From assembly GCA_043228905.1 (NCBI GenBank), contig JBHGNT010000011.1, forward strand, positions 5,518,001-5,582,000: 64,000 nucleotides of DNA, in the 5' to 3' direction. A program made the translations under genes and the position numbers. Shown here piece after piece: positions 1,866 to 61,320 of this stretch. The stretch is from Azolla caroliniana. Lineage: Eukaryota; Plantae; Polypodiophyta. Each line of letters starts with the position of its first letter. Positions within the stretch are counted from its first letter, which is position 1. The notes below the pieces were generated by a model. The model searched no databases. It was given only the letters and a program-made list of their open reading frames with translations, and had not been told where the DNA came from.

Positions 1866-2730
1866 TTATCCACGTGTATAGAATACTACGGTAAATTCTC
1901 ATCACTGGATATTATATGGTCATGCCCGGAACAAGAGTTTTGTCTCCCTTCGATGTCATTAGCCTTGAGTCTGGACCATGTATACTCTTTTCGTGGTGAA
2001 CCGGGAGAAAGTGGTTGTCAAGCACCTCCGAGCTACTTTGTCAATTAGTGCTCTCTGTCTCTCTGTCTCTCTCTTTGACAAACAACAAGAATGTAAGGAC
2101 AAAGAAGATATATTATTAAACATCACTTCTTGTTACAAAGAGGTTTAACAACATACAAGAGGTGGTGATTAGGGTTTTGGCTTACTTAGCTCTAATGAAG
2201 GCTTAAGGGGGATAAAAGAGGAGCTCTAATACACTAATAGGAAGATAAACCTAAGATAGCCCCCATAGCTGCTTTTCTAAGGAGATTTGCTGAAGATCCC
2301 CCAGCAACCGTTGGTTTTCTTGTTCCAAAGCATGGAACTTCTCCTTCAAGCATTGAAATTCCGAGAAAACAGATTGATATTCTTCAGCGCTAACAGTGGC
2401 CATGGGATGAAAGAAAAGAGGAATAAAAGATTAGTAGGAAATGAGAGAGACAGAAGGTAGGAAAATTGGTTCAAACTGTCATGAATAGTACTGAGACAGA
2501 GAAGGAATTAGTACTAAACGAAGGATTAGTACTACGAGAGGTGTGAACTTCTTCGAGAGAAGGGAGAAGTGAGTGAGACAGAGAGAGAGTGAGTGAGTGA
2601 TGATAAGAAAGATATTTATTATATGAAGAGAATATACAACGGTGGCTAAAAGGCTTAAGACTGGCGTTGAACCAATTTGGTTCAACATAATGCCTAGTGC
2701 CCTCTTTTATAGTGTTTTCAGGAGTAATCC

Positions 2731-2750
2731 TGAAGCTTCTAGAATGTTCC
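2731..2750. promoter_or_regulatory. Heat-shock element (4 phased nGAAn/nTTCn units) in chromovirus U3
   Basis: tGAAgcTTCtaGAAtgTTCc lies ~20 bp upstream of the minus-strand TATAAAA (2711-2705). The same motif is at 25679-25698. Confidence 0.7.
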
Positions 2751-2825
2751 AGAGAAATCTGGAATATACACTAATTTCCTATAATAAAATGTACATGAAA
2801 ATAATATCCTACGTATTACAATAGA

Positions 2826-2885
2826 TGGTCTAATGGTCAAGAGCTCGACCCATATAACCTAAGGTCATGGGTTCGAGTCTTGCCA
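2826..2885 (+). other. tRNA-like Pol III A-box/B-box cassette, antisense in LTR U3 terminus
   Basis: A box TGGTCTAATGG 2826-2836 and B box GGTTCGAGTCT 2870-2880, with AAGGTC before the T-arm-like segment. It does not fold as a complete tRNA. Confidence 0.6.
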
Positions 2886-2895
2886 TATCATGACA

Positions 2896-25400: not shown

Positions 25401-25843
25401 TGTCAGGAATAGTACTAAAGTAGAGAGGGAATTAGTACTAAAGAAGAGAAGTACTATTAGTACTAAGAGGACGGGACTGCGTAAGATTCCCGAGAGAGAG
25501 AGAGAGAGAGTAGAGAAAAGAGAGATAGCGAGGAAGAGAGAGAGAGATGATGATAACAGCTAATATATTATATGAAGGATAAGTACAAAATGGCTAAGAG
25601 GCTTAAGACTAGCGTTGAACCAATTTGGTTCAACATAATGCCTAGTGCCTTCTTTTATAGTGTTCTCAAGAGTAATCCTGAAGCTTCTAGAATGTTCCAG
25701 AGAAATCTAGAATATACATTAATTTCCTATAATAAAACTTAAATGAAAATAATATCCTACGTATTACAATAGATGGTATAATGGTCAAGAGCTCGACCCA
25801 TATAACATAAGGTCATGGGTTCGAGTCTTGCCATATCATGACA
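25401..25843 (-). mobile_element. Solo LTR of Tcn1/Tf1-like chromovirus
   Basis: TGTCA...TGACA, exact TSD CCAGA. Closely related to 2477-2895. Contains an HSE (25679-98) and A/B boxes (25774-84, 25818-28). Confidence 0.93.
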
Positions 25844-40568: not shown

Positions 40569-40590
40569 TGTCATGAACACATGACCATTA

Positions 40591-40656
40591 TGGCGTCACC
40601 CGGACTTGAACCTCGATCCTTGTAATCCATAATTGAAAACCACAACCATTAAGATA
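40591..40656 (-). other. tRNA-like Pol III A-box/B-box cassette, antisense in LTR U3 terminus
   Basis: Minus strand: A box TATCTTAATGG (40656-40646), B box GGTTCAAGTCC (40612-40602), then GGGTGACGCCA. Confidence 0.55.
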
Positions 40657-40725
40657 GTTTATTGTCATATGAGAGGATAAAAGCTACTTTTTGTATTACA
40701 TTGATTATTGTAAAAACTCTAGATC

Positions 40726-40775
40726 ATTCTAGAATGTTCTAGAATTTCCTAGAACATTCTAGAACATTATAGAAA
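40726..40775. promoter_or_regulatory. Extended heat-shock element (10 phased pentamers, 8 perfect) upstream of TATA 40800
   Basis: aTTCtaGAAtgTTCtaGAAtttcctaGAAcaTTCtaGAAcattataGAAa in exact 5-bp phase. Confidence 0.75.
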
Positions 40776-43700
40776 TCTCTAAGCTATTCTATAGGAACCT
40801 ATAAATAAGGGCATACATGTATTCTCAAATCAATTCGAATCAACACCAATCTTTATTTGTCATTACATATCTTGTATCCATTCTCTTTCTTTCTATATCT
40901 TAATACGCCCATTCTTCTCTTAGCATTTCGTTCCTTTCTTCTCGTGTTCTCTTATATCCTTCTTCCATCACTCTATCTTTTATTCTTGGTTGTGACAGTT
41001 TGATTCGAATTCTCTCTCTCTCTCTCTCATCCTCCTCTATAACCATCATGAAACCATGGTCACCATTAACTCAAAAGAATATCTCACCCTTGTTGCAGAA
41101 ATGGAGAATCTTAAATCCAAGTTAGCATCTCTTGAAGTAGAGAATCAACGTCTACTAGGGGATCTACAAAAGGTTACTATAGAGAAGCAACAACAAGAAG
41201 AGAAGTTCACGCGACGGGTTCAACAGTTAGAGTCGACAATTGTAATGTTACAACAACAAAGGGTCGAAGGTCAAGGACTTATCAAGGAGCCCAAAATTAG
41301 CCTCCCAGCTAAATTTGATTGTTCGAGGGCTCATTTCCGAGGTTTCTTGAATCAAGTACGGTTGGTGATTCAAATGCATCCCACGCGTTATCTGACAGAT
41401 GCATCACGAGTCGGGTTAGTGGGCACCTTATTGATTGGCATAGCGTTTTCGTGGTTTGCTCCATTGCTAGAGACAAATTCTCCTCTATTGAATAATTTCG
41501 AGGAATTTACCAAAGAATTTAAGGCTTGTTTCGGAGATACTGATGGGGCAAGAACAGCTATCAACAAGATTTGTACACTACGTCAAGGTGATCAACCAGC
41601 TTCGACATATGCAACCAATTTCCGTCTCATCGCAAGCGATATTCCTTGGGATGAACAAGCCCTAATGGAGCAATTCCGTTCAAGCCTTCGAAGTGATGTC
41701 AAAGACTTACTTCTTACCTTCCCCGAGGATCCAATGTCACTTACAGAAGCTATTAGTCGAGCAATACGGTGTGATAATCGCCTTTTTGAGTGTCGATGTG
41801 AGTGACTACAACAAATAACAAGATCAAGATTCACACCAACTTATGCATCAGTAATGGCCCAATCATCCCCTATTCAAACATATAGCCCTGCTCCAACTCC
41901 ACGCCAAACACGTAGTCCAGTCCCAATGGATAGTCCTACACCCATGGAGATCGATATGAATCAATGACAAGGACCGTTGTCGGACGAAGAGAAGCAACAA
42001 CGCCGAGCAAACCTTCTATGCTTATATTCCAGAGGTCCAGGACATATAGCCATTCATTGCTCCAGTAGGCCGAGACGTGGTAAATCAAATTCACTATGAC
42101 AATAAAAATGAGTACAACATTTTAGAAGCAGTTAGTGAATCTAATATTATGAATAATCCACCCTTGTCCAATAAGTTTGATGTCCTAAGCCAATTAGAAG
42201 AGGAGTCAAACGAATAAATCCGGCCAAAATAGGAGCCATTTGGTTGGACAACCCTAGATATGTACAACCTAGTGTGGGTTCCATTTCTTCCAAGCATGTG
42301 AGTAGAGTCTTCTCAGCCCAAGTACAAGTTAGGACACCGATTTTTCAACTTCAAGTCCAAGCCCTCTTAGATACTGGAGCCAATTCTTGTTTCATGGATA
42401 GAGAATTTGCCCAAAAACACCAAATATCCTTGCATACACTTCCTTGTCCAGTTTCGGTAGTAGTGATTTATGGATGTCCCATAGCTTCCGAGAAGATACT
42501 CGAAGAGTCTGAGCCAATACACATACTCTTAGGTGATTTAGGATGTGTAGTTTCCTTTAACATAATCCGTAGTCCTAAGCATCCAATTGCCCTTGGTTTG
42601 CCATGGTTCGAGCTACATAACCCTAGAATCAATAGGAGGAAGCGAGAAATTTGGTGCCCTTTAGTAGAAAATATCATTGCCAAGGATCGAACTCAGGATT
42701 ATTCTCTTGAAGAATATAGTTCTACCAATGCATCGTTTCCTTTTCATCAAACTTCATCTATCACATTGCAACAATTGCACCAAGTGGGAGGCAAGGAGAA
42801 CCTTTTCTTATTTGCAGTATTAGTGACACCTTCTAGTGCCACTCAAGGGAATTCAGACATCCAAATTCCCAAAAAATATCAAGACTATGTTGATGTTTTC
42901 GACAAAGTCAAAGCTAGTGTTCTTCCAAAGCATCGGTCGTACGACTGTCCTATTGATCTCCAACCAGGAAAAGAGTCACCGTGGGGTCCGATTTACAATT
43001 TATCTTCCACTCAGCTTGAGGTTCTTCGAGAATACATCAAGGAAAATCTTGCACATGGGTTTATTCGACATTCAAAGTCTCCAGTTGGTGCTCCTATCTT
43101 TTTTGTGAAGAAAAAGGACAGCTCCCTTCGTTTGGTCGTGGACTATCGAGGCTTAAATAAAGTCACCATAAGGAATATGTATGCTCTACCTTTAATCTCC
43201 AATTTCTTAGAAGGCATTGGTGGGGCAAAGAATTTTACCAAAATTGATCTAAGGGGTGCATATAATCTTGTTCAAATTTGATCGAGAGATGAGTGGAAAA
43301 CTGCATTTCGTACTCCGAATGGTCATTTCGAGTATATAGTCATGCCTTTCGGGCTCACAAATGCACCCACAATATTTCAACATATGGCAAATGACATTTT
43401 CCAAGATTTCTTGGATATCTTTCTCATCATCTACCTAGTTGATATGTTGATTTACTCTAAAACACAGGAGGAGCATGATATACATGTGCGGAAAGTACTT
43501 GAATGCCTAAGAAAGTATGGTCTTTATGCCAAACTTGAGAAATGCAGTTTTGATTGCAAACAAGTCGAATTTTTGGGATACACTATTTCATCCAAGGGTA
43601 TTTTCATGGATCCGACAAAAGTCCAAACAATATTGGAATGGAAACCCCCATGCTCAGTTCGGGACGTCTAGTGTTTCCTTGGATTTGCGAACTTCTATCG

Positions 43701-45050
43701 CAAATTCATACGTAATTATTCAAGCACTGTGTTGCCCCTCACCCAACTCACCAAGAAAAATCAAGCATTATTTTGGAGTATCGAAGTGGACAAGGTTTTT
43801 ACTTAGCTGAAACAAGCATTCACATCAGCACCTATCCTAGGGAATATTGATCCCGAAAAGCCATTTACTATTGAGGCGGATGTGTCAGACTTCGCATTGG
43901 GGAGTATCCTATCGCAACCAGGCAAGGACGGGCAAACAAGACGACAAGCTCGAGTATTAAATAGACGACAAGCTCGGTGGACCCAATTTCTAACGCGTTT
44001 CGATTTCAATATCATTTTTCGCCCCGGAAAACAACAAGGGAAACCAAATGCTTTGTCTCGGCTTTGTCTCGGCGTTCGTATCTAGATCTTTGACCTAGAG
44101 ATCCAACCTTTGACAATCAAAAGTATATTCTCCTCGGGCCATCAAAGCTACAGGCAACAACAATTTATGCCACGCCACTTGATTCTAGCCTTCTTGACAC
44201 TATTCGGCCACAACTTCACTCTGATGATTTCACTAAGGATGTCTTAGCCCACATTGGTTCAAGTCGTCCATCTTGCTCCACATTGCAAGGGTCATCTCAA
44301 CATAATCAGGACTTCAAGTGGCAAGATGGCTTACTCTTCTACAAGAATCTCCTTTACGTCCCTGATGGATCACCCCGACTTCAAGTGTTAGAACATTGTC
44401 ATGATGCCCCCATGGCTGGACATTTTGGTATTGCCAAGACCATTGAGTTTGTGAAACATTCATTTTGGTGGCCCCACTTGCAAAAATTTGTCAAAGATTA
44501 CTTTCGCACATGTGACACCTGTTGTCGCGCCAAAATACCCAGCCTGCATCATCCTTATGGCTTACTACAACCTCCCAGCAAGCCACGGCCGTCTATTTCT
44601 ATGGATTTCATTACAGATCTGCCACCTTCCAAAGGCTTTGATAGTATTTTAACATTAGTGGATCGGCTCACAAAGATGACACATTTTGTATCGTGTGTAA
44701 AGACCATTAGTAGTGAAGAAACTGCAGATCTCATTATGCGTTAGGTGTTTCGCCATCATGGTCTCCCAAATGATATTATTAACGATCGAGGTCCTCAATT
44801 TATCTCACACTTTTGGAAGCACCTATGGGCAGGCCTCAAAATCTCCTGCAAACTCTCTTCGGCTTATCATCCACAAACTGACGGACAAACAGAGTGCACA
44901 AATCAAACGCTCGAGCAGTATCTTCGATGCTTCATGAGTTATCAACAAGATGATTGGAGTAATATTTTACATCTTGCCAAGTTTCAATACAACAACATGG
45001 TACACTCTTCTACCAAAGAGTTTGCATACAACAACATGGTACACTCAACT

Positions 45051-45790
45051 AGAAGCTCTGAGGCAACAACGTCAAGATTCTACTTCGTCAACAGACGGCT
45101 ACACAGTTACACACTCTCTCACTCTCACTCACTTACTGTTACACAGTTTCACAACGACCTTCTGAGTAACTTTAAACAATAGCTCCTCACAATCATCATG
45201 ATTGCCCTAAGTACTTATACTAGTACACCTTTTGGGTTATTTACAAGTGTAGCCCATAAGGGCATATTTAGACTATTTACAAGTATAGTCTTCCGAGTTG
45301 GTTGTCTACACGATTTCGGTTTCTCATCAACTCGGCTCTTCTCTTCCCATCCGAAGGGACCCGTTTCCTAACAAACTCCCCCTTCACTCCAGCATGGGGT
45401 ATTGCACCAATCCGATCTTCCGTCGGCAAGCGCACAGCTTTTCAGTTGGTAACACTTTAATCAACATATCTGATCCATTTTCGGCCATGTGAACCTTCAC
45501 TAGAGGGAACTCCCTTTCTCCTACCCTCTCCCGGAGCCAATGATACCTCCGTTGGATGTGCTTTTTCCTCGAGTGGTAGGCGGCATTTTTTGCAAGGTGG
45601 ATGGCACTCTGATTATCACAATAGAGTCGGAATTCTTCCTGCCGAATTCCCAGCTCACTGATAAACTCCTCCATCCATACAATTTTCCTTGCCGGCTTCC
45701 GTTGCGGCCATGTACTCGGCTTCCGTGGTCGACAACGCCACGGCCTTCTGCAACCTCGATTGCCACGAGACAGCTCCCCCCGGAAGCCGA
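45051..45790 (-). mobile_element. Fragment of a second Tork/Tnt1-like copia: RNase H end, PPT and partial 3' LTR
   Basis: ORF 45384-45674 YCDNQSAIHLAKNAAYHSRKKHI, PPT AAGGGGGAG at ~45376-84, LTR begins at 45373 (minus). Confidence 0.85.
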
Positions 45791-48424: not shown

Positions 48425-51400
48425 TCAACTAAATATCAAATGAGTACAAAGAACCAAACAGGGAAAATGCACAAGAAACAAGTAGAGATATGTGGCACTG
48501 CCCCAATTCCACATGCATTCAACCCATTCCCATGTAATCATGAGGCTTGATTCTGAGGGTTTGGTAAATCCTATAAGGATAAGGAAGATGAGTGGGGAAG
48601 AGGCTATCAAGGTAAATATCAATGCCAACAAAGCTATAGCAAATGAACCCACTTTCTTTGTTTTATGCTTGATTGGATATACAATCAAGCACATAGGTAC
48701 AAGCATAACAGCTCCAACAAGAGCTGCGGCAAAATTAATCAGTGACATAATGCCGATGCCGATAGTTGCTGCTCCAAGCGTAGCAGCTTTTACAGCAATC
48801 CAATCAGTCCCCACATATTGCATCCCTAAGAAACTTTTCGCATATAGCGAAATAATGACGAGCATTGGTATACTTATGATGAAGAATGCAACCCAAATAC
48901 CTGCTTTAAGATTCGGGTATTCAACGACATAGTCAATAAGTGGTGGACTGATGCCGACAATGAATGACCAGAACTCCACAAAGCATACAATTGGAACCGC
49001 TGATGACCATCGAATAAAGCTCGGAACACCATCTCCTGAAAGAGCTTCTGGTGATAATGATCCTTCTTGCAACTTATCTGAGTCTTGTGAGGGCCTTTTG
49101 CCACATGATAGAACATTTTCCGTAGCACATACAGCTGCAGCTTTGAGAGGCAGTGTTATCAGCAGCAACAATAATGGGACAATATACACACCAACTGATA
49201 CAAATTTGTTTGGTCCAGTCAGAAAGTACAGGAAAAAGGATTGGTGAAACTTCTCGAGTAAATTATTCACTGACCGTATTGTTCCCTCCAGCAGTCTGAA
49301 AGCAGAAGTTAAAAAACATCACAGTTGCAACAAACTAGATTGGTGAATGAGTAAAAGTTATGATGCCTCATAAGTTCATAATGAATGCATACCTGCCAAA
49401 TTTGATCAATGAACCAATATGAACAGCATTATCTTGGGATGAAGCTGACATGGCCATGGTAACTGCATCAATTTGATAATCTCCAAATGCCCCATGTGCA
49501 CCAGTAGGAACCCCTAAAGCCTACAAAAAATGCTCTGACTAAGAAAAATATTACTAAGCTTTAATACTGTTTAAATATCAGGATAGAGCTGATATTCAGG
49601 TATATGAGAAACACATGAGTACCAGTAAACCAAGACGTCTAATATCTCATTCAGATGCCATTAGGAGGTATACCTTACCTGAAGAGTCAATGACCGCGAT
49701 AAAGTTGCAGCACCCTGAACATATTCAGAAGCAGGAGGGCTAAATTTCCACCCCACATTTAACATCGCTGCCATTTGTCCCAATTTCTCCAGAAAATCAC
49801 CAACAACATGAAGCCATTTCCATTCAAGCATGTTGTCCAAAATATCCAACTTCATTTGTAATCCTTCTCTGTAAACAGCCAGATTGTTGACAACATTTAT
49901 GAGGTCCAGATTTGGCATCTGTCCATTTGATCCTTCGGCGTACAATTTTATTGAATCACCCAGCCCCGGTCCCTGCGATGCCTGAAATTTAAATATTATA
50001 CCTGCCGCAATAACACCTGCCCTTTTAAAATCTCTCATATTGGTTTTCTCGAGTAAAGAAGCACCATTTTCATCGAGTGTTTCATATATATGATCATATG
50101 ATCCATTGTCAGAATTCAGAGAAGGCTCATGATAATCCCTCAACCATGCAGCAACACCAGTATGAAAACCAAATTCTGTATCCGCAGCAAGCCAAATAAT
50201 GTCCTTTGCCAACCATTGTGCTTCCTTGAGAAGATGAAACAAGGACAAACCAAGCCCCAAAGAAAACGCATCTGCATCTGTAAGGGATCGTGTGCTAAAT
50301 GGAGTGACAAGAACAATCGCTTCATTCCCTTCTCCGCGGGGTGCACGAACTATCCCAATTACATTGACACCCAGTACTTCTGAAATGTTTGCATTATTAT
50401 TCCCAGAAACCATTTCCTTTAAACCACTTTGCGAGGAAGACTGCGAGGAGAAAAAACACATTGGTGAAAATGGAGAGCCAGGAGCAGCGAATGGGTGCAA
50501 GTAGAAATCTGCACCCATAGCAATAAGATGCTTGACCAAGACATTTCTGACAACCCTGGCAAAACAAAGCTAGAATGTATCACATAAAGCTAATGGATAT
50601 AAAAAGCTTTAGAATGTCTCCTTAACCCCTTTTTTTCAAATTCTTATTGCACAAATTTGTGGATATTTATCCGAACATTTAGGATGTACCCATCCATGTT
50701 CTTTTCTCTTAGCATTTGCAGCTCCTTGGCTATTCGAGATGCATCCAGTGAATGTTGGAGAACAAATTTCGGACTGGCAGAACCTGTAATAAGTTTTAGA
50801 ATTTCGATAATTTCACTTGGATATCAATGGTTACTTAGATTCAAAGAGTGACACTATCTTGCAAAATCAACAAATGTCTATTAACATCTACTTATTGCCA
50901 AGTTTGGCCTATGAGACAAATCACAATTACAAGTATGGGTGAATTCATCATAGCTATTTCAAACAAACATAAAAGCCCTAGTCTAGGTTAATGATCTTAA
51001 CGCATGGGGAGGACTGATTCTTGAGATGGTTTACGAGAATAAAGTCTGAAGCTAATACGTATTGGATTAGTGTCAGGGGACATGGTATCCAAAGGTTGGT
51101 TGGTGTATCCTCAACAGAGTCTTGCATGACATTGATGTTAACTAGTTCCACTCCAGAAAAGGACGCTAGAATAGTAAGAAAAGTAAGGTTGTAATAGTAC
51201 TAAGCAAACATTTGGGTGAAGAGCAGTAATATGAAAGAAATGTAATAGGATTAGGAAATGCCTTTTAAGGTTGGATCCTCATTGCTGTGAGAAATGGAAA
51301 AGAAAGTGTTTTGTACACAGATCAAGCCTGGATAAATTTCTTATAGAGATTCTTAATGGTGATTTAGCTATACATAAATGATAGTAGAAAGAGCAGTAGT

Positions 51401-59231: not shown

Positions 59232-61320
59232 CTAATAAACAAGACCACATGAGAGGTGCATTAGTAGCACTGCAGCTTCTTCTTCATCTTCAGCAAACAC
59301 TCGTCTTACACTTTGATGCTCAATGTCAATGTTTGATAGGCTCTTCAGCCTCGACGGAAAAGGATAGCCATAAATACTCTTTAAGGGAGTAGACCCGAGA
59401 TGGTGGTGCCATTTCCTCTTCCTCTGTTGTTTAAGGCTCAGCTCAGAGCTCCGATTCGGCTTCACCATCGTATCGGACATAATAACATCACTTTGGCTGG
59501 GGTAGGATCTGTACTTCTTGTACCTTATCCCGCATGCATTGCACAATGACTACAAGCAAAAACAAAAGAAAACAAATGTGTTCATAGACCCATAATTTGG
59601 AAAGTCACAAGAATTGAATTGAACCACACTTTGATTTTCTATATATGCCTGCCTGCTTATTTTGGAAAACAGAGAACATATACTAATTAGTACCTTGGGT
59701 CCTTGAGGGCCACTTCTCCACATGGGTGTCTTTGTTGCTCCACACAAAGCGCACTCTTTAAGACTAGGGTTGAGGTAACTCTTATTGGGGGATCGATTTC
59801 GGCTTTCTTGAAGACTAGCGGCATTCGAAACTCGAGCTACTTCTAGAACTTTGGCAAAGTCCGAGAATTCTGGAAGTAAATCAAACTTGGAAGGTTGAGG
59901 AATGATTAACCGAACTTCATCTGACTCCGAAACTTGAGTAGCTAACTCCGAATTTCCATTTACTTCATTGTTGACACGAATAGCTAGCCTCGGAGATAGT
60001 TTCTTACCACCCGGATTCTCGGGTTCTTCTCCACATACCGCCTCCATGATGCTTGTTGGGCTACTGTAATGTGTCTCATTGGCATTACTTCTCCCACATG
60101 GAGAAATAAGAGAATCCTGCAAACAGGAGGAGAAGAAATGTAAAGAACGGTTTGATATAAGCATGAACACCATCATCAAAACTTGTTACATGTTCACAAT
60201 TGTTCTATTCAACATACAAGCTCATCAAAGAAATCTAGGAAGCCTTATTATATACATTAAACGATATGTTCTCCACATACCCTGATGGAAATATATCCAC
60301 CCACACAACCTGACGGAAAGGCATTAACTATTACCCAAGACTACATTTGTTGTTTGCGTTGCTCCAGGCTATCTATTTTTCTTCGACTTAAGCTCTGCTA
60401 AGTTATGATCATACTTCTCGTGCCTAATGATAAGGATCGCCATTACGGTTTTAGTTAAGTTTTTTAATGTTTATGCTTGGGTTTATAATGTGTGATAGAT
60501 AATACTCATTAAAAGATGCTCCGCCACGGAAAAAAGAAAACCTAATAACAGTTAAGAATTAAGGGTTCGCCCTCCATCCATCCAGTCATGCATAGCCATG
60601 ATGAGGGTTAAGATTCAGCTTGCTATCAATCCCCCACAATTTCCCTTTAAACCCTAAATTTCCTATAACCTTAAGGTTTAGAATTATCTTCTTATGCAAA
60701 CCATACGGAGAAGAATACTGGTAAATTAAACTAACCTGATGAAAATGACGATTGACATATCCAATGCCAAGAGTTTCCTCTTCTTCTTCTTCTTCTTCTT
60801 CTTCCTCTTCCACCGGGGATGATTCAGAACAACCAAATCCATCTCTCGTCACAGAAACACAGTATTTGTTCTCTTCTTCAACCTCAGAAGCTACATTAGA
60901 GCAATAACTTGACCTTAATGAAGAACCAAAATCACAAGATGAAGTCGAAGAAGAAGAAGAAATGTTTGAGGGAATTATATCTATGGAGCTTTTCTTCTTC
61001 TTTCTCTTATGCAAATTCGATGCATTCTCCACAGTGCCCAATTCACCTTCTACATCATCATCATCATCATCATCCTCACTAGAGAAAGCTGAAGCAAAAT
61101 CTTTTCTCTCCGTATTTCCTGCATTATCTCCATAGCTTTGCGAGCTCCTTCTCGAAAGCTCTGTGTGTGAGCTTAATTCTGAAGGTGAAACAGGAGATTT
61201 CCTAACATCGTCCTCAATGATTCGGTTCTCACATGTCTTGCTCTCTTTCTGCGTTTGCAAAAGCCAGAACTTCTTGATGTGGCCGTGGCCACACACTCGG
61301 GAGAGCTGAGAAGAATCCAT
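59232..61320 (-). CDS. LLM-domain B-class GATA transcription factor (GNC/GNL-like, ~441 aa); exons 61320-60736, 60116-59694, 59549-59232
   Basis: CALCGATKTPMWRSGPQGPK|SLCNACGIRYKK (C-X2-C-X18-C-X2-C, with an intron in the finger as in class B) and C-terminal EEEAAVLLMHLSCG. GT-AG phase-0 introns. Confidence 0.92.

Follow-up and report, generated by a model that had tools for sequence, protein, structure and literature searches.

Why should the long terminal repeat (LTR) of a retrotransposon carry, near its outer edge and facing away from the element, what looks like the internal promoter of a tRNA gene? The question arises from a window of 64,000 nucleotides of the fern Azolla caroliniana, where retrotransposons lie nested in one another and two host genes occupy the far end (exons of the GPI transamidase GAA1 and of a GATA zinc-finger protein, window positions 48425-50569 and 59550-60185, minus strand). 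The relatives of the elements likewise suggest a non-seed land plant. An earlier note on this DNA had described an A box and a B box in the U3 of two LTR families, antisense to the element and 44 nt apart, at 2826/2870 in family 1 and at 40656/40612 in family 2; coordinates, spacing and orientation agreed when we checked them. The note had also placed the pair at 25774/25818 in a second family-1 copy, where the cassette is indeed present and antisense in U3, with an A box one base off from the sequence implied there. The features of the three LTRs are collected in Table 1.

Table 1. Features of the three cassette-bearing LTRs, in window coordinates
Feature	Position	Strand	Remarks
Family-1 5' LTR	2477..2895	-	419 bp, TG...CA
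Family-1 A box	2826..2836	+	tRNA positions 8-19; antisense to element
Family-1 B box	2870..2880	+	tRNA positions 52-62; 15 nt inside LTR end
Family-1 GAA/TTC alternating array	2731..2749	-	between cassette and TATA
Family-1 TATA-like box	2705..2711	-	LTR Pol II promoter; 114 nt from A box
Family-1 R-start sequence complementary to PBS	2666..2677	-	self-primer
Family-1 PBS	2464..2476	-	self-priming type
Family-1 solo LTR	25401..25843	-	5-bp target site duplication; within a Copia element
A+B cassette of the family-1 solo LTR	25774..25828	+	
Family-2 5' LTR	40569..40997	+	429 bp; within Copia RT/RNase H sequence
A+B cassette of family 2	40602..40656	-	T4 in spacer; B box 33 nt from LTR start
Family-2 GAA/TTC array	40727..40765	+	
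Family-2 TATA-like box and self-primer at R start	40800..40844	+	
Family-2 PBS	40998..41011	+	self-priming type
Family-2 broken gag-PR-RT-IN frames	40996..45182	+	Gypsy order

The assignment of both families to the chromoviruses, made in the earlier note, was confirmed by a chromodomain on the family-1 integrase (Chromo PF00385, E 1.2e-14), to which the ends of the family-2 integrase align. Family-1 gag starts at 2403, after the primer-binding site (PBS), and is interrupted by another insertion; no 3' LTR of the family-2 element was found within the window. The elements had been thought to do without a tRNA primer, and in most junctions of these Tcn1-type LTRs the PBS does have an 11-nt complement at the R start, a layout of the self-priming type, as predicted for Tcn1 (PMC6317226). 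Tcn1-type elements of this genome are autonomous, with LTR pairs about 5.2 kb apart enclosing gag-pol, and their reverse transcriptase (RT) is 62% identical to a Cryptococcus protein, the nearest named matches being fungal, amphibian and algal. One Tcn1 element (L248:4049-5111) contains its chromodomain-coding segment as three tandem copies.

A weight matrix for the A and B boxes, built from the nuclear tRNA genes of the host, ranked the three window cassettes as the top three sites in the 64 kb (scores 26.6, 23.5 and 21.0; next 15.6), real tRNAs scoring 28.6-35.5 under the same matrix. Eight further LTR pairs of the window scored at most 7 and had no cassette. Identity as tRNA genes was rejected: ARAGORN predicted none, the low-threshold search suggested in the earlier note gave no Rfam tRNA match at E<=10, and the cloverleaf stems are lost (1-4 of 7 acceptor pairs and 0-3 of 5 anticodon pairs). 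With regard to a source, the family-1 cassette is closest to tRNA-Arg(TCT), with an exact run of 12 nt, but the spacer does not single out one tRNA, its similarity to tRNA-Asn, -Thr and -Arg being equal (14.2-14.6, compared with about 9.5 for shuffled sequence).

The cassette is a general property of these elements. LTRs were gathered genome-wide with a pattern of LTR end plus primer site that is blind to the boxes (3,471 raw matches, overlaps included, vs 116 in the control); 70 loci from this list reduced to 58 distinct ones, 42 of which had a placeable LTR start, the remaining 16 being dropped. An antisense cassette was found in 41 of the 42, with an A-B spacing of 43-44 nt (43-45 in host tRNAs) and the B box 10-62 nt from the LTR end, and the only LTR without it has a deletion in the spacer. 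Forty of the 42 scored above all of 20 shuffles, the best score in sense orientation being 7.6. A genome-wide pattern combining the LTR start with the box cores gave 3,639 matches vs 1 in the control. Thus the expectation of the earlier note that family members share the cassette held.

When metagenomes were scanned with the integrase end, 59 loci were retrieved; 45 were examined and 29 of them had a usable automatic 3' LTR start. The cassette was present in 26 of these 29 LTRs, down to 63% integrase identity, and two of the three LTRs without it belong to distant relatives (55% integrase identity). A tree built from 25 integrase-end segments separated five distant rows from the others at 100/100. 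Another 100/100 branch has the two families of the window on its opposite sides, implying that the cassette predates their split. By eye, neither the published LTR of Selaginella SM-Tcn1 nor the first 400 nt of the moss element RLG1 contains the cassette; therefore, it appears to be a lineage-limited gain.

If the boxes matter, they should have outlasted their surroundings. Twelve hand-picked lineage representatives were aligned without knowledge of the motifs; copies with deletions or duplications and outgroups were excluded, and near-identical copies from top-hit DNA searches were kept out of the analysis. Mean pair identity was 0.77 in the B box, 0.70 in the A box, 0.52-0.53 in the spacer and 0.40-0.42 in the next 40 nt of upstream flank, in keeping with the prediction of the earlier note that the boxes would exceed both spacer and flank (boxes vs spacer p=0.002, which is only indicative, as are the other p-values, because the 12 lineages are related and hand-picked). 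Positions 8, 14, 16, 45, 54, 55, 56 and 58 of the tRNA numbering are invariant in 12/12 lineages, including the B-box C needed by yeast TFIIIC (PMC4228148), and positions 9, 11, 57 and 60 are fixed as purine or pyrimidine; neighbouring positions 10 and 12 vary, leaving a degenerate A box beside a near-canonical B box. In box consensus and A-B spacing the cassette agrees with a type 2 Pol III promoter. These results indicate that the cassette is, very probably, a tRNA-type promoter kept by selection for some function.

The cassette occupies a constant place in the layout of U3, which reads from the outside in as terminal dinucleotide, B box, A box, AT-rich stretch (47-77 nt, with one outlier of 141), GAA/TTC array, TATA and self-primer. 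Given this order, the cassette and the Pol II promoter point away from each other, with the cassette on the side of the flanking DNA. The GAA/TTC array was present in its three-unit form in 36 of the 42 Tcn1-type LTRs, compared with 0.02 occurrences per kb of random sequence. We take these alternating units to be heat-shock-element-like arrays, which suggests that the elements may be heat-inducible. The surroundings of young family-1 copies are rich in other elements: with a set of only ten query proteins, element proteins were matched in the flanks of 15 of 27 copies and in 85 of 333 random bins (p=0.0016). These counts fit the insertion into element-rich DNA proposed for chromodomain elements (PMC7466625).

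A second lineage has the same arrangement. During the search for host tRNA genes we found a dispersed tRNA-like repeat that sits in the U3 of another Gypsy element, with 770-bp LTRs, an FLDD-type RT only 27% identical to that of Tcn1, a tRNA-Trp primer site, liverwort homologues and CG-centred 4-bp duplications (by eye in several copies). A preference for NCGN targets is a feature of Phygy, and by the features given in PMC6317226 this lineage is a Phygy-like, short, non-chromovirus Gypsy element. Among 30 Phygy-like LTRs sampled by their primer site, 18 contained an antisense cassette, 400-565 nt upstream of the primer site, and 12 had none; a sense cassette was found in one of the 30, and the background was 7 and 10 of 200 one-kb bins on the two strands (4-5%). 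Scores reached 33.2, level with real tRNA genes. In one family the distance from cassette to LTR end ranges over 167-346 nt and the distance to TATA stays at about 206 nt. The cassette is thus not always within the outermost 70-90 bp, where the earlier note had placed it: it is 10-62 nt from the LTR end in the Tcn1 lineages and 167-346 nt from it in this second lineage. Since this lineage is primed by a tRNA, the cassette has no special link to tRNA-free priming, another connection that had been drawn. The spacers of the Tcn1 and Phygy-like lineages resemble each other in 11.8-14.8 of 33 positions, about as much as either resembles host tRNAs, and for this reason convergence and an old exchange look the same.

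Other tRNA-like pairs were seen as well. In some Phygy-like LTRs a putative A/B-like pair, in sense and perhaps a chance match, lies downstream of TATA (L391:4467, minus; L392:5382, minus; L393:4013, plus; scores 19.5-26.1). A putative host gene has a cassette resembling the Phygy type (L358:4865, minus) some 140 nt upstream of its TATA, pointing away from the gene, and a second copy of this cassette is about 53 kb away.

We propose that the cassette is a predicted landing site for TFIIIC and TFIIIB, which, placed outside the Pol II promoter, would act as a boundary or open the chromatin, a reading to which we assign a probability of about one half. An A and B box pair would have been captured from a tRNA gene or a tRNA-derived SINE, and selection on active elements would keep the boxes. 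TFIIIC would bind the cassette and place TFIIIB on its inner side, and the resulting boundary or nucleosome-clearing effect would shield the Pol II promoter of the element from silenced DNA at the insertion site; a Pol III transcript, if there is one, would be incidental. The TFIIIC sites of yeast serve as barriers and insulators; they also phase nucleosomes and block Pol II transcription nearby (PMC4228148). This proposal is favoured by the place of the cassette outside the enhancer-like array and TATA, by its presence in two unrelated lineages and by the enrichment of young insertions inside other elements. Against it, the conserved A at position 14 is lost in seven of 25 family-1 copies, a successful subfamily with a shared change, and the within-family test of shared variants, given below, is not significant. 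A DNA-binding model also fails to account for the good conservation of positions 23 and 43-48, which lie outside the textbook boxes, and tRNA-like relics occur elsewhere in this genome too. The LTRs that lack the cassette (the 12 Phygy-like ones and, by eye, SM-Tcn1 and RLG1) imply that it is dispensable for the clades. Our literature search found no paper demonstrating boundary activity of a TFIIIC site in plants. More tentatively, the two Gypsy lineages may have independently captured, or swapped, an outward tRNA promoter in U3 as a TFIIIC boundary of their own, which would make a heat-inducible promoter usable in heterochromatin and scatter thousands of extra TFIIIC sites.

The foremost alternative is an active Pol III promoter in the cassette, whose antisense transcript would run from the 3' LTR across the polypurine tract (PPT) into the integrase end, or end as a short RNA, and would tune element expression or feed small-RNA pathways. 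Both boxes and their spacing are kept, as this would require, the scores of Phygy-like copies reach those of real tRNA genes, and the AT-rich upstream stretch and, in family 1, a CAA just before the A box are features of plant tRNA promoters (PMC13437025). Moreover, foamy-virus LTRs produce Pol III RNAs from A and B boxes (PMC3993851). However, no common product is apparent. The T4 which the earlier note had seen inside family 2 is present, at position 25 in the spacer; two other lineages have their first T4 just past the B box, and in further ones it comes 94-1088 nt downstream (25, 62, 94, 109, 287 and up to 1088 by lineage), so that no terminator position is kept, weakening the antisense-transcript idea of that note. 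Nor is a fold conserved, since stem pairing was not above shuffles (acceptor 0.38, anticodon 0.35; p 0.085-0.76). Because promoter positions and spacing are kept while the fold is lost and the terminator unfixed, and because the relation to the Pol II promoter is fixed, we favour a protein landing site over an RNA product and consider the latter unlikely.

A second alternative places the function in the genomic RNA, where the boxes, being complementary to the D and T loops of tRNAs, would anneal a host tRNA like the 3' half of the bipartite primer site of Ty3 and aid dimerisation, circularisation or strand transfer. In Ty3, U3 segments of 12 and 11 nt are complementary to the T and D arms, respectively, of the tRNA that primes the element (PMC5371799, PMC11381356). 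In a comparison covering 11 host isotypes, 12/12 lineages could pair (G-U allowed) with 9-18 nt in the T-arm half of the host's tRNA-Arg(TCT), with predicted duplexes of -42 to -63 kcal/mol vs tRNA self-folds of -22 to -33, and the conservation of positions 45-48 would be accounted for; no initiator tRNA was found among the host tRNAs with a motif pattern. Nevertheless, the Ty3 segments fit its own primer, whereas the Tcn1 lineages self-prime and the Phygy-like elements use a tRNA that the cassette mismatches, the fit to tRNA-Trp being poor (-26 to -30, with exact runs of 5-8 nt) in three of the four Phygy-like families. The best partner tRNA differs between lineages, the isolated T8 is invariant among variable neighbours, and no wobble-tolerated change occurs at positions 8, 16, 54 or 55. 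Taken together, these observations make tRNA annealing quite improbable.

It is also very unlikely, and largely refuted by the pattern, that the cassette represents the neutral remains of an inserted SINE or tRNA, inherited by descent. Descent does contribute, because spacer identity (about 0.52) exceeds that of the upstream flank (about 0.40), and similar relics lie outside LTR ends. Furthermore, the shared variants of 25 family-1 copies avoid the invariant set only weakly (1/14 vs 21/64, p=0.097). However, conservation peaks on promoter positions in LTRs that have diverged to 48-80% identity over 130 nt (38-57% for unrelated outgroups), spacer indels never exceed one base in the 12 lineages whereas flank lengths change freely, and two unrelated lineages have the cassette in the same orientation and place. 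Least probable of all is a role of TFIIIC/TFIIIB at the cassette in integration, as a tether of the cDNA end or a landing pad drawing new copies beside old ones, since, although Pol III complexes guide Ty1 and Ty3 integration in yeast and the B box is never less than 10 nt from the LTR end, young family-1 copies lie mostly within Copia coding sequence (11 of 15 matches) and were not found adjoining tRNA genes or cassettes, and the Phygy-like cassette tracks TATA instead of the end.

A tRNA-like sequence is present in the U3-R region of HIV. Among plant elements, the Helenus TRIMs are a closer precedent for tRNA-like LTRs than the Cassandra elements cited in the earlier note: their LTRs contain tRNA-derived sequence conserved at boxes A and B, encode no functional tRNA, and have been proposed to originate from a SINE insertion (PMC10886601). 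Helenus elements are non-autonomous, about 0.3-1.3 kb long and tRNA-primed, whereas the Azolla elements are autonomous, of 5-7 kb, with a TATA promoter; and in Helenus the tRNA-like sequence is in sense (by eye, in the LTRs of the supplement, including those of Selaginella) and transcribes the element (PMC10886601), whereas here it is antisense. Being autonomous and antisense, the cassette elements do not belong to Helenus/TRIMp3, with which they share the tRNA-like LTR sequence. Other Repbase LTRs are also stated to resemble tRNAs, but that study analysed only TRIMs (PMC10886601). Cassandra and Ajax likewise have an internal Pol III promoter inside the LTR, but it is of the 5S type and drives the RNA of the non-autonomous element itself (PMC10886601). 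Foamy viruses are autonomous retroelements with A/B-box promoters in the LTR beside the Pol II promoter, and differ in that their product is a miRNA hairpin with a fixed terminator (PMC3993851), neither fold nor terminator being kept here.

With regard to function, the barriers formed by yeast tRNA genes and ETC sites also consist of tRNA-type promoter elements near Pol II promoters, with no need for the product (PMC4228148), and B2 SINEs use such elements as boundaries, although tied to CTCF (PMC8136502). These sites are host-encoded or dispersed rather than built into an LTR, and the boundary role is only predicted in our case. As for Tcn1 itself, the chromodomain integrase and the self-priming PBS are common to all, and by eye the PBS and R start are the same as in SM-Tcn1 (PMC2864245, PMC6317226). 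By eye as well, SM-Tcn1, which was reported to have no primer site, has a PBS complementary to its R start, a self-priming layout (PMC2864245). The U3 of SM-Tcn1 (by eye) and three distant relatives (55% integrase identity) differ in lacking the cassette. In our literature search, to which subscription papers and Repbase entries were mostly closed, no description of tRNA boxes in Tcn1 or Phygy LTRs was found. Pol III promoters in short non-autonomous LTR elements were thus known; the outward, antisense cassette in autonomous elements appears to be new and, as judged from the sequences, real and well supported.

Chromoviruses are thought to target heterochromatin, which raises the question of how their promoters stay usable there. 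If our reading is true, a portable site for Pol III factors on the outer side of U3 would be a concrete answer, and a plant case of TFIIIC boundary function; it would also extend tRNA-promoter capture to autonomous elements, with a new orientation and purpose, and would raise the number of potential TFIIIC sites in this genome by at least 3,600. Natural B-box mutants among the thousands of copies provide built-in controls.

It is worth pointing out that the cassette also occurs outside complete LTRs. A DNA element with long inverted repeats (L242, L243) contains an LTR remnant without TATA and self-primer and, in addition, 3-6 tandem copies of the cassette unit alone (about 100 bp), each followed by T runs; 42 pattern matches placed this type of element at about two dozen loci. 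Two integrated units (L240:388-770 and L241:366-1022, the latter with a 5-bp duplication) have a U3 end at both sides, inverted, so that their cassettes point outward on both flanks; these units are possibly aberrant cDNA products of self-priming. Finally, genes for tRNA-Arg, -Lys, -Ile, -Asp and -Trp form large tandem arrays in this genome, in which many of the copies have decayed (L149, L177, L179, L304-L324 and L332-L354).
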